A stretch of 64,000 nt of DNA. Origin: Octopus vulgaris (Eukaryota). This document shows positions 2,105-61,500 of this stretch, in pieces. The position numbers and the translations under genes were made by a program. The notes under the pieces were generated by a model. That model was not told the origin of the DNA. It did no database searches and saw only the letters and a list, made by a program, of their open reading frames with translations. The DNA lies in the NCBI GenBank assembly GCA_951406725.2, contig OX597817.1:138446001-138510000 (forward strand), written 5' to 3'. The number at the start of each line of letters is the position of its first letter. Position 1 is the first letter of the stretch.

Positions 2105-2970
2105 CATGTGTTTTGGTATTGGCAACATGAATGACAAAGGTCAGAGACTACTTGAATTTTGCACATATAACCTGTGCATCTGAATTCTGTTCAACTGACC
2201 CTTAGTTACCACAGCGCGGATTGTGACACAGATCATTCACAAATAAGAAGTAGGGTGAGGATTCTGCCTAACAAAGTCCATTACTCCAAGAAAATGGCCC
2301 GACCACGCATTAACACTGCCAGAACCTCGGACCCTACACTGCGAAAATGTTTTGCTGTTTCTATCAAGGTTGCCCTCAGTAGCTGCCCAACCTCCTCAGC
2401 TGAAAGTAGGTGGAATTATATCAAGGAAGCTTTGTATACCACATCAATAGATACTTTCGGCATGAGAGAAAGGCAAAAGCCAGATTGGTTCAGTGCTGGG
2501 CTCTCAGAGCTGGAAACAGTTATCGAAGCAAAGCGTGCAGCTCTGATGCAATACAAGAGTGATTCATCTACAAAGTCACTGGAAGAACTCAGAAAGGCAA
2601 GAAACAAAACCCAACTGACTGCCAGACGCTGTGCAAATAGGTATTGGCAAGAAATCTGTCAGAGTATCCAGTCAGCTGCTGACAGTGGCGATACCCGTGG
2701 AATGTATGCCGGTTTGAAGAAGGCCCTCGGTCCATCCGCAACCAAGTCAGCCCCTCTGAAATCAACTACTGGGGATCTCATCAAGGACCAAAGCGAGCAA
2801 ATAGATAGATGGGTGGAGTAATACCAGGATCTCTACTCACGGGAGACCACGGTAGCTGAGGCTGCAATCGAGGGCGTCAAGATCTTGCCAGTCATGTGTG
2901 AACTTGACAGTCTGCCATCTATAGCAGAGCTCACCAAGGCTATTGACTCCCTAGCAAGTAACAAGGTGTG
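2105..2970 (+). pseudogene. RTE-like LINE ORF2 fragment (end of endonuclease plus linker)
   Basis: ORF 2174-2821 has SADCDTDH (endonuclease SDH-like motif), QKPDWF, ARRCANRYW and APLKSTTG..RWVE, typical of RTE ORF2. It is interrupted by stops. Confidence 0.8.
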
Positions 2971-3470: not shown

Positions 3471-3557
3471 ATGGAAAAAGAAAATACTTGTTTTGGTTTT
3501 ACTTCTTTCCTTCGTTTGTTCCTTGCATTCTAATCTCTTCTCTGTTTTCTTTTACAG

Positions 3558-5821
3558 ATTCCAATTCCACGGACCTGAAATACCAAGGCAACCAGACCGA
3601 GGTCAATGGGGACTCACAGAAGCAGAATCAACAGGAATTTGTTAAGGAAATGGCGATTGATCAAAATGCCTCGGATGTGAAAACTGATGTTCCACCAGAT
3701 GGCGCTAGCAGTGGTGGCGGTGATGGTGGTGGTGGTGATGACGTGGCTGGACCAAAAACTGTTGCCGACAGCATGCACGGTGTGATGATGCATGGGGATA
3801 AGACACCAGGGAAGGACCACAGCCATGAACATAGCGGATCAGAGAATGTTGTGGCCACAAACACAAAAGCTGGGCCTCAAGACATAGAGCAACAAATGCA
3901 TGGAGTTATGATGCACGGTGACAGTGCCCCTGGTAAGGATCACAGCCATGAACATGGTGACCCACAGAATGTTGCGCACACAAACACAAAAGCAGGACCT
4001 CAAGACATAGAACAACAAATGCATGGAATTATGATGCATGGTGACAGTGCCCCTGGTAAGGATCACAGCCATGAACATGGTGACCCACAGACTGCTGCTC
4101 ACACAAATACAAAAGCTGGGCCTCAAGACATAGAACAACAAATGCATGGAGTTATGATGCACGGTGACAGTGCCCCTGGTAAGGATCACAGCCATGAACA
4201 TGGTGACCCACAGAATGTTGCACACACAAATACAAAAGCTGGGCCTCAAGACATAGAACAACAAATGCATGGAGTTATGATGCACGGTGACAGTGCCCCT
4301 GGTAAGGATCACAGCCATGAACATGGTGACCCACAGAATGTTGCACACACAAATACAAAAGCTGGGCCTCAAGACATAGAACAACAAATGCATGGAGTTA
4401 TGATGCACGGTGACAGTGCCCCTGGTAAGGATCACAGCCATGAACATGGTGACCCACATAATGTTGCACACACAAATACAAAAGCTGGGCCTCAAGACAT
4501 AGAACAACAAATGCATGGAGTTATGATGCATGGTGACAATGCCCCTGGTAAGGATCACAGCCACGAACATGGTGACCCACAGAATGTTGTGGCCACAAAC
4601 ACAAAAGCAGGACCTCAAGACATAGAACAACAAATGCATGGAGTTATGATGCATGGGGACAATGTCCCTGGTAAGGATCACAGCCATGAACATGGTGACC
4701 CACAGAATGTTGCACACACAAACACAAAAGCTGGGCCTCAAGACATAGAGCAACAAATGCATGGAGTTTTGATGCATGGTGACAGTGCCCCTGGTAAGGA
4801 TCACAGCCATGAACATAGCGGATCAGAGAATGTTGTGGCCACAAACACAAAAGCTGGGCCTCAAGATATAGCAGAACAAATGCATGGGGTTATGATGCAT
4901 GGTGACTCACAGGCTGGCCTTCTTCATCACATCAAGGACAATGCCAAAAAATCTATAAACCCTAAATTTAGGGGTCAATTTAATGTTCAGAATTATGAAG
5001 AGTATTTACATGGTGTAATGATGCATGGCGACTCGAAACCTGGAAACGACCACCATGGCCATTCAGGAGAAGATGAAAATACTGCTGACAAGAAGAAAAA
5101 AGAAGGAACGGTAAATAGTCCAATGGACTATGAGGAATATCTTCATGGAGTTCTTATGCATAATGACGCCAAACCAGGAGAAAGTCATGTCCATGAAGAT
5201 GAGAAAAAGTTCCAGAAAGTTCGTAAAACAGATAAACCAGCGAGTCCTTCAGATGCCGAAGAATTAATACATGGTCTTTTAATGCATAATGATGCGAGAT
5301 CTGGTTATAAACATCATGAACACGAGAAAAAGGAAAAGGCTGACCCTCTTTCACAACCTGGGAGTGTTTTGGCTCCTGATATCGATGCTCTAGATAAGAG
5401 TTTAAGCAACGACAAGGTACCTGATGGAGCATCATTTGCAAAGAGAAAAATTGTAGTGAAAGGTGGTAAAGACAAAGACCTGGAAGAAAATGTGAAACCG
5501 GTGGAAGAAAGCCGAATTAGCGGTTATTTATATTCTATTTACAAAACAATTCATGATATGAAGGAGAAATATTTTAATCTAGATAAGAATAATAATAACA
5601 ATGATAGAAAGGAAAGAAGTCATAAAACGGAAAAAGCTTCTGAAGAAGGGGTGGGTGTAATTACGGCCGAAGAAGCCCGCAAACATCTTTCGCCTACCCA
5701 TGAACACAAGTCTGGTGACATGCGCAGTGATCTCGATTTAATTGGAAATACTGCGCCTCTTCATATGAACCATAGAGCTCATAGAGATAATGGAAAGAAA
5801 CATAAACACGATGAAGGCTAA
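3558..5821 (+). CDS. Terminal coding exon of a His/Met-rich tandem-repeat protein (function unknown; putative metal-binding)
   Basis: A polypyrimidine tract and ttttacAG acceptor end at 3557 (phase 1). About 750 codons are open to TAA 5819-5821. The repeats keep frame with many synonymous differences. ATTAAA/AATAAA signals follow at about 6012-6430. The ORF-track N-terminus (3389-3557) is probably intronic. Confidence 0.85.
3773..4879 (+). repeat. Coding minisatellite, 9 x 123 bp (41 aa: MHGVMMHGDSAPGKDHSHEHGDPQNVAHTNTKAGPQDIEQQ)
   Basis: ATGs at 3773, 3896 ... 4757 at 123-bp spacing. Four further degenerate HG-x-x-MH-(G/N)D motifs lie downstream. Confidence 0.95.
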
Positions 5822-5822
5822 C

Positions 5823-5951
<129 letters not shown>

Positions 5952-6959: not shown

Positions 6960-7570
<611 letters not shown>

Positions 7571-15479: not shown

Positions 15480-16830
15480 AACAGATATCTGACATTGTAC
15501 CCAAAATAAGATAAGTCAACCGATTAGATCAGGTGTGTGGATGTGGGAAAAGGAAAGCACCATTGCAGCGCGTTGCTGCATTCACCATTTGTGGGTTGAT
15601 TCCCGGGTCCTCATGGGCGATCCATCAAGCAGAATAGAATCTCAGTTAGTCCCCATCTCCACGACATACCTCCTCATCTGCTGCGACCATGTAGCTTGTG
15701 ATCGACTAATACGAGCCGTCAGCTCCACTGGATCCTCAGGGAAGAGGGCATGGTAAGAAGGTTCTGACTGAGAAAATCAAGCAACAAGGCCAACCAGTCT
15801 GAGCTGGCGCTCCCAAATCATGGAAGTAACAGGATGCATTTCAGTTTCTGAGTAGAGTCGTTGGTTGGATATGAAATCTGACCAATGATAACCCATAACT
15901 ATGCGAAGTGTCCTGGTACCAAAGGAGTTCAGGCAGCTCCCAAGGAGCCCCAGATTGTGTCTCATAAGGACATGGAGGATCAGAGACGTAAAGACCGGAA
16001 CCTTTGTTCTCCTCCAAAGATATTGGCAGCACCAAACATCCCTGTCCGCTGAACCAACTTTAAATCTTTTTGGAGCTTTGGACTTGAAGCCAATGTTGCA
16101 ATGAATCTTACTGCCGAGGTAAGTGAAGTGGTCAACAACTTCAACATTATCACACACATCGAAGACAAACAAGGCAGAGTCCACTAAGAAGCCAACAAAG
16201 GACTGGATTTTCGTCCTGACCCAAGAAACTCCCAGGCTAAGTGGTTCTGCTTCCTTGCAGTCAAAAGAGAGCATTCCTGAAGGCATCCAGAAAAACAGAT
16301 TGTTCTAATAACTGTGTTATTAGAACAATCTGAGTCTGTAATCCTAGTTTCGCCAATGAGTGCACCACAACTTGATTGAGCCACTGTTTGGCCAAGTATC
16401 CAATCCATGCAGGCATTGAACATGGTAGGAGCCAAGACCCAACCCTGACGGACCCTAGATCTAACTGGGAAAAAGCCAGATGTTGAGCTCCCCAATCCAA
16501 ACTGTACTGACTGTTCCAGTGTACAAACCATCATCAGCCCAATCTGTTGAGGAGGTACACCTCACAGCCCCAGAATCCTCCAAAGCAACATCCCTGTTCA
16601 CCGAGTCAAATGCCTTGCAGAAGTCGACATAGGCTGAAAGCAACCCCTGCTGAAAGGTCCGCTTGTGTTCAATGAGTACACAGAGAGCCAGAGTTCTGTC
16701 AGTAATCAACCTCTTTGGTCTGAACCCTGACATCTCCGGCTGCTGGGACGCAAGCAGATGATTTCGTACTTTGTTCAGAATAACCATGGAAAAAAGACCT
16801 TACCGGGCACTGAGAGATGTGTAACAATTA
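15480..16830 (-). pseudogene. RTE-like LINE reverse transcriptase fragment
   Basis: SGFRPKR..TDR, YVDFCKAFDSVNR, VRQGWVLAPTMFN, EVVDHFTYLGS, RQLRLVG; several frameshifts. Confidence 0.9.
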
Positions 16831-27994: not shown

Positions 27995-29151
27995 ACAGGG
28001 TGCAGTGGGAAAATTGTGGCAATCTTATATTTTTAATTTCGCGCATTGTGATTTTGTCGACTACACAGTATAGTAGGGTCAGTTGGACACCATTTGTGAG
28101 AAAAACAGCACCATGACGCAATTCACTGCCAAGAATTTCGAAATTTCAGAGTGTGTGGGTATCAATCTGAGTACAGTGCAAAGGATTCGGAAAGATTTTG
28201 ATGAGTTTAATGGTGATTACGCAGGTATTGCAGCTCAGAAAACTCACTCTGATTGTTCTGATATGAAAAGAACACTTGAATTTGTTGGTGAGATCCAGGC
28301 CATGATTGACAACGGTCCGTCCAAGTTAATCACGTCCATCGCCAGGGACATGGAAGTGTCTAAGTTTCTTATCAGGCAGGTAGTGCATGAAGACATTCGG
28401 TATTCCTCATACAAGATGAGAAAGGGCCAATTTTTATTCCAAGCCATCAAGGACAAGAGGAAAGACCGCGCTACGAAACGTTTCAACAAACTCAAGCATT
28501 CCCTCCAACTGAACATGCCTTGGTTTTACTCAAACAAGAAAAGTTTCTGCCAGGATCAGATGGTGAAACACAGAACAACCGTTGGCTTGCCATGTCTCCA
28601 AAACATGTACCGAGAGTGATAAAAATCAAACATCCAGTCAACATTGGAGTGATCACTAGTGACAGCGACGTTATGCCTCCATTCATCTTCCCATAAGGCC
28701 TCAGACTTAACACGGAGGCCTACATCGAGTACCCGGAGGAGGTAGTGCTGCCCTGGGTCAAGAGGGTGGCTGTTGGAAGACCCTGTGTCTGGCAAAAGGG
28801 CTCTGCATCATGTCACACAAGCAGGAGAACCCAGTCATGGCTGTCAGACAATTTCTGTGACCACACCACCCCGAACAACTAGCCACCTAACTTCACAGAC
28901 TCCCTGGGTTATTATATGTAAGGCGTGGTTGAGCGAGAGAGCAACAAAACTCCTTGTAACACCAAAGCAAGGATTTGGGCAGCATTCACCAGTTTAAACC
29001 AGTAAAGTAGTTGCAGGAGATTCTGAAATCGCCTGGAGGTCATGTCTGAAGCCAATGGCGATTTAATTGAATAAGTTTACTCTTTAGTATTTCAAGATAT
29101 CTGTTAAAATGTGATGTCAGTGTTATTTTCATTTTCCCGTAATTTAGACGA

Positions 29152-60739: not shown

Positions 60740-61500
60740 TGGTGATTTGCTCCATCTTCACAGATGATTGCTGTCTCTGAGTTTCCTCATTTGTATTCCT
60801 GACTTTCCATCCATGACCTCTCAGATGACTATTCAGTCCTTTTGTGGATCGGCATGATTTTAAACATAGATGACAGGCAAAAGTTCTAACTTCCAGTGGA
60901 TTGATCGGATCACTCTGCAAGATATGACTCCTACAAGATAAGACTCCTGCAAGATATGGCCCCTGCAAGATATGGCCCCTGCAATATATGACCCCTGCAA
61001 GATATGACACCTGCAAGATATGACACCTGCAAGATAATATTCCTGCAAGATATGACCCCTGCAAGATATGAGCCCTGCAAGATATGACCCCTGTGAACTG
61101 CCATATATTTCTCTTCGGACCCAAAATCCATTTGCAAGCCATTTCTCACACTACACACCTCCAATTACCTGGTCCAAGGAGGAAGGACATTGCATACAGT
61201 TGCTCTTTCATGAGACTTCAGATGGTTGACATACCCGGCCTTGGGAAGGAGTGCACGGACAGCGATCTATGTTTTCATTAAGGTTCTAATGACAGCCCCT
61301 CTGAAACCAGCACTTTAGGCTTTCATGCACCGGGTGACCCTCTTTAAAAGATATACAACTTTCACTTATACACTTCCTCCACTCAATTTTTTCCAAACCT
61401 AATTCTTCCCAGTTCTTTACATGGATATGCACTTCTTTTAGGCTGTTTTGTTTAAGACTACCTTGGTTGCTTTTTTGTGATTTATACTAAGGACGCTTTA
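60740..61500 (-). pseudogene. RTE-like LINE 3' end with terminal C2H2 motif
   Basis: Minus ORF end FACHLCLKSCRSTKGLNSHLRGH; upstream sequence is degenerate. Confidence 0.6.
60915..61093. repeat. 16-bp minisatellite (ctgcaagatatgaccc) x 11
   Basis: Counted directly; it lies inside the LINE fragment. Confidence 0.95.

Follow-up and report, generated by a model that had tools for sequence, protein, structure and literature searches.

The window analysed here, a stretch of 64,000 nt from Octopus vulgaris, holds the last coding exon of a spliced gene whose product is rich in histidine and methionine (Table 1). A frame on the forward strand (3557-5821) runs for 754 residues to a TAA stop, and the exon itself (3558-5821) begins in phase 1 behind a polypyrimidine tract and the acceptor TTTACAG at 3557/3558. 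Among 24 listed sequencing runs, 20, from eight studies, contained at least half of the sampled words; none of the 24 is recorded as RNA, and 17 of these 20 were guessed to be so. Contigs crossing the exon start were found in four of four runs, where they continue before position 3555 for 136-249 letters with the same sequence in all. Since this upstream sequence is absent from the window when searched at up to three mismatches, the exon is joined by splicing to one that lies over 3.5 kb away on its upstream side, and the octopus locus is a real spliced gene. The original prediction is supported in this respect. Seven exon variants were seen among the runs, with the His, Met, and Asp of the motifs described below unaffected, and residues 365-754 are 88% identical to A0A0L8G269 of O. 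bimaculoides.

Table 1. Features of the octopus locus, with positions counted from the first letter of the window.
Feature	Position	Strand	Remarks
Intron end: polypyrimidine tract and AG acceptor	3500..3557	+	Sequence and contigs
Terminal coding exon, phase 1	3558..5821	+	754 residues including the split first codon; TAA stop
Polar/Gly-rich N-terminal linker, residues 1-73	3558..3775	+	Disordered in model
Tandem array of 123-bp (41-residue) units, motifs 1-10	3773..4906	+	Tandem Repeats Finder
Diverged motifs 10-13	4883..5314	+	Cores from 4883, 5009, 5144, 5270
Amphipathic C-terminal helix, residues 656-673	5522..5575	+	Conserved; modelled helix 656-673, pLDDT 71-90
Motif D-x-R-[HS]-DL-[ED]-L-x-G-x-T-x-P, residues 721-734	5717..5758	+	
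C-terminal HDEG	5807..5818	+	Instance of the family HDEx ending
(CA)n microsatellite, start of 3' UTR	5826..5950	+	
Candidate polyadenylation signals	6012, 6124, 6144	+	

The window as a whole is microsatellite-rich animal DNA. A long inverted repeat pair (812-1171 and 1177-1530), possibly a non-autonomous DNA transposon, lies in the intron upstream of the exon. By eye, fragments resembling LINE retrotransposon ORF2 were seen at 2171-2821 (+) and 7071-7400 (+), the longer one without a Pfam match, and decayed Tc1/mariner transposase-like frames, likewise without a Pfam match, at 28077-28696 (+). A degenerate reverse transcriptase fragment at 16187-16561 (-) matched RVT_1 at E 3e-5, below the curated cut-off, and nearby frames at 15780-16799 look like the same decayed element. 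A 16-bp tandem repeat of 11.2 copies occupies 60915-61093. No other clear host coding exon was seen at 6000-64000 among the 100 longest non-low-complexity frames of 224, and tblastn found no second family copy in the window.

The exon product contains 10.6% His, 5.0% Met, 1.3% Tyr, and no Cys, and its maximum hydropathy over 19 residues is 0.19, in keeping with the original claim that the exon has no hydrophobic segment. Three N-x-S/T sites (residues 3, 12, and 37) fall in the linker. The pattern HG[VIL][ML]MH[GN]D occurs 13 times, starting at residues 74, 115, 156, 197, 238, 279, 320, 361, 402, 443, 485, 530, and 572; successive starts lie 41 residues apart nine times, followed by intervals of 42, 45, and 42. 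The count of 13 agrees with the original prediction, and the pattern was found in none of 10,000 shuffles of the exon protein. The His cluster which that prediction placed after each motif shrinks to an HH pair downstream of motif 10, and the feature that is invariant downstream of the core is instead Gly12 with His15 (13 of 13 motifs). Both residues are kept in each of the diverged motifs 10-13, for each of which a short helix is predicted. The array comprises 9.2 copies of its unit with 92% matches, a copy number that comes from the assembly, no read or contig crossing the whole array. Compared with their own consensus, nine array units carry 30 synonymous codon changes and 26 non-synonymous ones; the two units at the ends account for 17 of the non-synonymous changes. 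Because the six motifs of Argonauta are collinear with the non-array part of the octopus protein (59% identity; octopus motifs 10-13 against Argonauta motifs 3-6), the array is a recent amplification relative to Argonauta.

A search for relatives, named as a check in the original prediction, was productive. Against 1.84 billion representatives, phmmer gave 36 matches, 29 of them with the motif; the other seven (P0020, P0028-30, P0032, P0033, and P0035) lack it and were dropped as unrelated repeat proteins. Two profile searches returned 76 proteins each, and 82 different relatives were collected overall, with lengths in the family of 280-780 residues. Thirty of them bear species names and represent 28 species: molluscs (O. 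bimaculoides, Argonauta, a chiton, 16 bivalves, and four gastropods), annelids (Owenia, Dimorphilus, and Paralvinella), nemerteans (Lineus and Tubulanus), and the flatworm Macrostomum. In this word-limited search no named relative lies outside Spiralia, the other 52 being without a taxon. Each named species has one entry except Tegillarca and Macrostomum, with two each; the two of Macrostomum are 91% alike. The Tegillarca models KUTeg_012174 (P0015) and KUTeg_012173 (P0039) adjoin each other and appear to be a single member split into an N-terminal and a C-terminal half. The gene appears to be single-copy and has persisted in four phyla of Spiralia. In a quick tree built from the final 190 residues of 78 rows, octopods (100), oysters (100), Mytilus, and unionids fall into groups, as would be expected of one orthologous gene; support for the deep branches is poor.

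Database names of the relatives are either "uncharacterized" or driven by composition. The names Na/K/Ca exchanger 1-like, filaggrin-2-like, CFAP251-like, and Cation_ATPase_N were rejected, the named domains or membrane segments not being found; the Pfam check of such names covered the chiton and Macrostomum entries, which gave no match, the Argonauta and Gigantopelta entries lying outside the scan. At E 0.1 no Pfam family was found for the octopus exon or for 25 of 26 aligned relatives, the remaining one having a weak syntaxin-N match. NCBIfam and PDB sequences gave no match, the ESM Atlas gave nothing usable, and the family locus was not found in metagenome scans. Foldseek returned no match with the predicted model, and the best VIA-align hit was a generic helical hairpin (Z 5.2, rmsd 2.5, 46 aligned), both obtained with a low-confidence model. 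No paper was found for the motif or the accession numbers in a search of journals open without subscription and a minority of supplements, and a keyword search retrieved one paper, which was irrelevant. The chiton sequence, which stands in supplement file 2 of PMC6425005, apparently a set of unclassified candidates, is the sole trace of the family that we found in print. No characterised family matched, in agreement with the original prediction, in which the family had not been recognised. By sequence comparison we regard the family as distinct and unnamed, with a new motif, and as no member of the SilE, HBP, CREC, or proneuropeptide families. Databases currently mislabel its members, and a new family is defined even if the reading proposed below should fail.

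Members usually have 5-7 repeats (range 3-13; Haliotis 3, Argonauta 6, and Pecten 10). From 297 cores the family profile reads GP-x-D-x-[EM]-[DE]-x-[LMF]-H1-G-[VI]-L-M5-H6-G-D8-x3-G12-x2-H15, with extra His at 13, 17, and 19 in a minority, so that the conserved unit, H1-G-V-L-M5-H6-G-D8-x3-G-x2-H15, exceeds the one originally described. Positions were counted in 278 cores of the relatives anchored solely on HG[VILMA]xxH, which are non-independent given the kinship among repeats and among species. Met occupies position 5 in 274 cores and Leu in one; Asp8 is present in 263, His15 in 248, and Gly12 in 217. Position 4 is Leu in 240 and Met in 30, position 0 is Leu in 158, Met in 91, and Phe in 20; conservation extends as well to the Leu at position 4 and the Gly at position 2. 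When the anchor is relaxed to HGxxxH (291 cores), Met5 stands at 88% and His15 at 78%, against a family background of 4.2% Met and 7.9% His. The suggestion that the potential ligands are under selection agrees well with this conservation of His, Met, and Asp positions across Spiralia. Since Met5 is nearly invariant and its neighbouring positions accept Leu, it points to a sulfur ligand, and the variability of positions 4 and 0 (Leu, Met, or Phe) argues that Met5 is not a generic hydrophobic residue. The absence of Cys, a correct observation for the octopus exon, does not extend to the family: in 44 of the 82 relatives at least one core has a PC-x(3-8)-C pair just before it.

Translated by hand in the frame of the exon, 30 letters before the octopus junction give T-H-L-D-A-K-P-T-Q, with two differences in one run (X13), both synonymous. 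The LDA|KPT pattern in which the upstream piece ends resembles G|KPT in the leaders of the chiton, Pecten, Solemya, and Ostrea. A signal-peptide-like start was seen in 23 of the 30 named proteins by a hydropathy heuristic (not SignalP), two of the 23 (Tubulanus and Dimorphilus) being possible intron run-ins, and a later membrane segment in none of the 30. The upstream octopus exon, beyond the window, thus probably carries a signal peptide. The database models of O. bimaculoides (P0005) and Argonauta (P0090) begin within the last exon and lack the probable signal-peptide exon that the spliced contigs reveal.

For Mytilus, AlphaFold2 predicts a helix of 9-14 residues at each core without a tertiary fold (pTM 0.23); motifs 8-13 of the octopus exon give the same result, and its motifs 1-7 are of low confidence (pTM 0.30). 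The helices are amphipathic, with a hydrophobic moment of 0.8-1.2, and place H1 and M5 at i,i+4. These models of isolated helices suggest a largely disordered octopus protein, as had been supposed. A predicted complex of two Mytilus C-terminal copies with zinc scored 0.00, obtained without use of the alignment, and speaks neither for nor against zinc binding.

Beyond the repeats, the C-terminal region is conserved and non-repetitive. The helix there has the family consensus ISD-x-IL-x-DIELMK-x-RYL (of 78 rows, 69 have K669 and 70 have Y672). This helix motif was located in 68 proteins, and in 40 of them a dibasic pair stands before the conserved Tyr; the octopus sequence reads KEKY at this point, without a dibasic site. 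In the motif at residues 721-734, G730 is conserved in 70, P734 in 68, and T732 in 66 of 78 rows. Octopods have lost the family's D-x3-Y-x2-W and S-D features. The protein ends in HDEx in 16 of 83 members (octopods, a gastropod, annelids, and a nemertean), where 0.04 would be expected from the internal rate, and seven others end in KEEI/RVEI/KQEM-like sequences (0.1 expected). A canonical KDEL-type end, [KRHQSA][DENQ]EL, occurs in none of the 83, and many bivalves have neither an HDEx nor a KDEL-like ending. The HDEx ending is reminiscent of an ER-retrieval signal. Retention is weaker when the last residue is small, HDEA reporters being kept less firmly and not competing for the receptor (PMC7617889), so the protein probably travels past the ER.

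Taken together, we favour a multivalent protein that binds Cu/Zn, is disordered over most of its length, and resides in the secretory lumen or outside the cell, acting like SilE without being related to it, and give this reading about an even chance of being right. The product would be a soluble, acidic protein with a signal peptide, in which each repeat forms a short helix followed by a turn and presents three His together with one Met and one Asp at constant distances. Such a repeat would most likely bind a soft or borderline transition metal, with Cu(I)/Cu(II) as the first candidate and Zn(II) as the second, and would fold upon binding. Strung on flexible linkers, 3-13 repeats could act multivalently to buffer or carry metal, either inside the secretory lumen or immediately outside the cell, protonation of His in acidic compartments could release the metal, and the conserved C-terminal helices may act in sorting or partner binding. 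We favour metal chiefly because Met5 is not exchangeable for Leu and a third His stands at an exact distance outside the helix, and also because of SilE and of the chemistry involved. Ligation by thioether and imidazole is established Cu(I)/Ag(I) chemistry in oxidising compartments. SilE is a disordered chain of short helices that acquires its fold upon binding and accepts Cu(II), Zn(II), and Ni(II) as well, and the i,i+4 His-Met geometry has been described for its Ag/Cu motifs (PMC5008109). However, the HxxM/MxxH arrangement of SilE is not reproduced in the octopus motif, and conservation of an amphipathic helix bearing His and Met would be just as compatible with binding to proteins. The computed charge of the octopus exon product goes from -48 at pH 7.4 to +17 at pH 5.5, but of the five proteins for which charge was calculated only that of octopus reverses sign: at pH 5.5 those of Mytilus, the chiton, and Owenia are still negative and that of Macrostomum lies close to neutral. 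This counts against the reading, as do the many bivalves without an HDEx or KDEL-like ending. Ten H-[ANGST]-H motifs occur in the octopus exon product (window 3818-4820), a pattern targeted by the His methyltransferase METTL9; methylation there could tune metal binding.

The foremost alternative, which we consider unlikely, is a granin-like or scaffold protein of secretory granules, whose repeated helix would bind proteins or self-condense under a His-protonation switch, metal being incidental. An acidic, disordered, signal-bearing chain of amphipathic helices fits it, as do the conserved Leu at position 4 and Gly at position 2 and the strong shift of charge with pH, but it leaves unexplained why Met5 gives way to Leu in no more than one of 278 cores and why His15 is held at a fixed distance outside the helix. 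A role as a structural or adhesive material outside the cell, in which metal or pH would bring about cross-linking as in squid beak HBPs or the His-rich domains of mussel byssus, is improbable. The protein is secreted, His-rich, and repetitive, with a lineage-specific repeat expansion; yet the exon product has neither GHG nor GHGxY, as the original prediction had noted when offering a structural role, and little Tyr, the family occurs in worms without shell or beak, and the C-terminus is conserved. Its peptides were not found in supplements on octopus skin mucus, ink, and salivary gland proteomes and a squid chromatophore study, in files that may omit sequences (PMC10138644, PMC7693380, PMC10142993, and PMC6397165), and the supplement of PMC7441323, covered in part, likewise gave nothing. 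We think still less of haem or iron binding with His/Met pairs of neighbouring repeats as axial ligands, which would likewise require an invariant Met but for which no fold or pocket is predicted and no CxxCH is present in the exon. His/Met axial ligation is established for c-type cytochromes. Least probable of all is a prohormone or neuropeptide precursor releasing the repeats or a C-terminal peptide, in favour of which stand the signal peptide, the repeats with acidic spacers, the dibasic pair before the C-terminal Tyr, and the place of the chiton member among unclassified candidates (PMC6425005). Against it, no more than 8 of 297 cores have KR/RR/RK within 12 residues upstream, and the octopus helix has no dibasic site. 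The core motif was not found in files 3-4 of PMC6425005 (file 3 in part) or in 11 searched Platynereis files, and identity with the annelid MNC neuropeptide proved wrong on checking.

If the protein does bind Cu or Zn in the secretory lumen, it would supply a missing piece of mollusc and worm metal handling together with a new metal-binding motif; an apparently single-copy gene with a sharply conserved, unnamed motif and restricted to one clade is in itself a rare novelty. A more far-reaching version of the metal-binding reading, which we find doubtful, is an ancient Spiralia-specific secretory Cu buffer or chaperone with a new three-His/Met/Asp mini-motif, loosely retrieved or sorted via HDEx and passing Cu to secreted cuproenzymes. 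Its recipients would be tyrosinases, amidating monooxygenase, and, where present, haemocyanin, and it would qualify as a candidate for the large stores of Cu/Zn in oysters and cephalopods. The original prediction had tied the protein to the copper flux of cephalopod haemocyanin. Flatworms, nemerteans, annelids, and many bivalves are for the most part not known to use haemocyanin. As the family occurs in these taxa, and as the number of motifs does not follow haemocyanin, its distribution gives no support to a role specific to haemocyanin; a part in loading haemocyanin within octopus is possible.

Among known systems, granins and proneuropeptides are likewise acidic and disordered, with signal peptides and amphipathic helices, but repeats of the octopus family are not flanked by dibasic sites. 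HRC, the histidine-rich calcium-binding protein, and the CREC proteins such as calumenin share the soluble, acidic, luminal character and the repeated ion-binding units, and CREC members end in HDEL/HDEF-type signals; the present family appears to differ in its His/Met ligand set, in having no EF-hand or other Pfam match, and in an HDEx end without a terminal hydrophobic residue. Squid beak HBP-1/2, whose repeat motif is GHGxY, are also His-rich, repetitive, pH-responsive cephalopod proteins (PMC6884462), whereas ours is acidic, Tyr-poor, free of GHGxY, and Spiralia-wide. SilE/PcoE are disordered His/Met metal sponges of the periplasm, the known kind of protein that the family most likely works like; it shares with them putative export, predicted disorder, and multivalent His/Met motifs repeated on short predicted helices (PMC5008109). 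There is no sequence relationship: the SilE motifs MxxHxxxxxxHxxM and HxxMxxxHxxM are absent, the octopus exon having no MxxH and ten HxxM that lie within a different motif. Unlike SilE/PcoE, the octopus family is an animal family of 280-780 residues, built on H-x3-M-H-x-D-x6-H in place of MxxH/HxxM and completed by a conserved C-terminal helical region.
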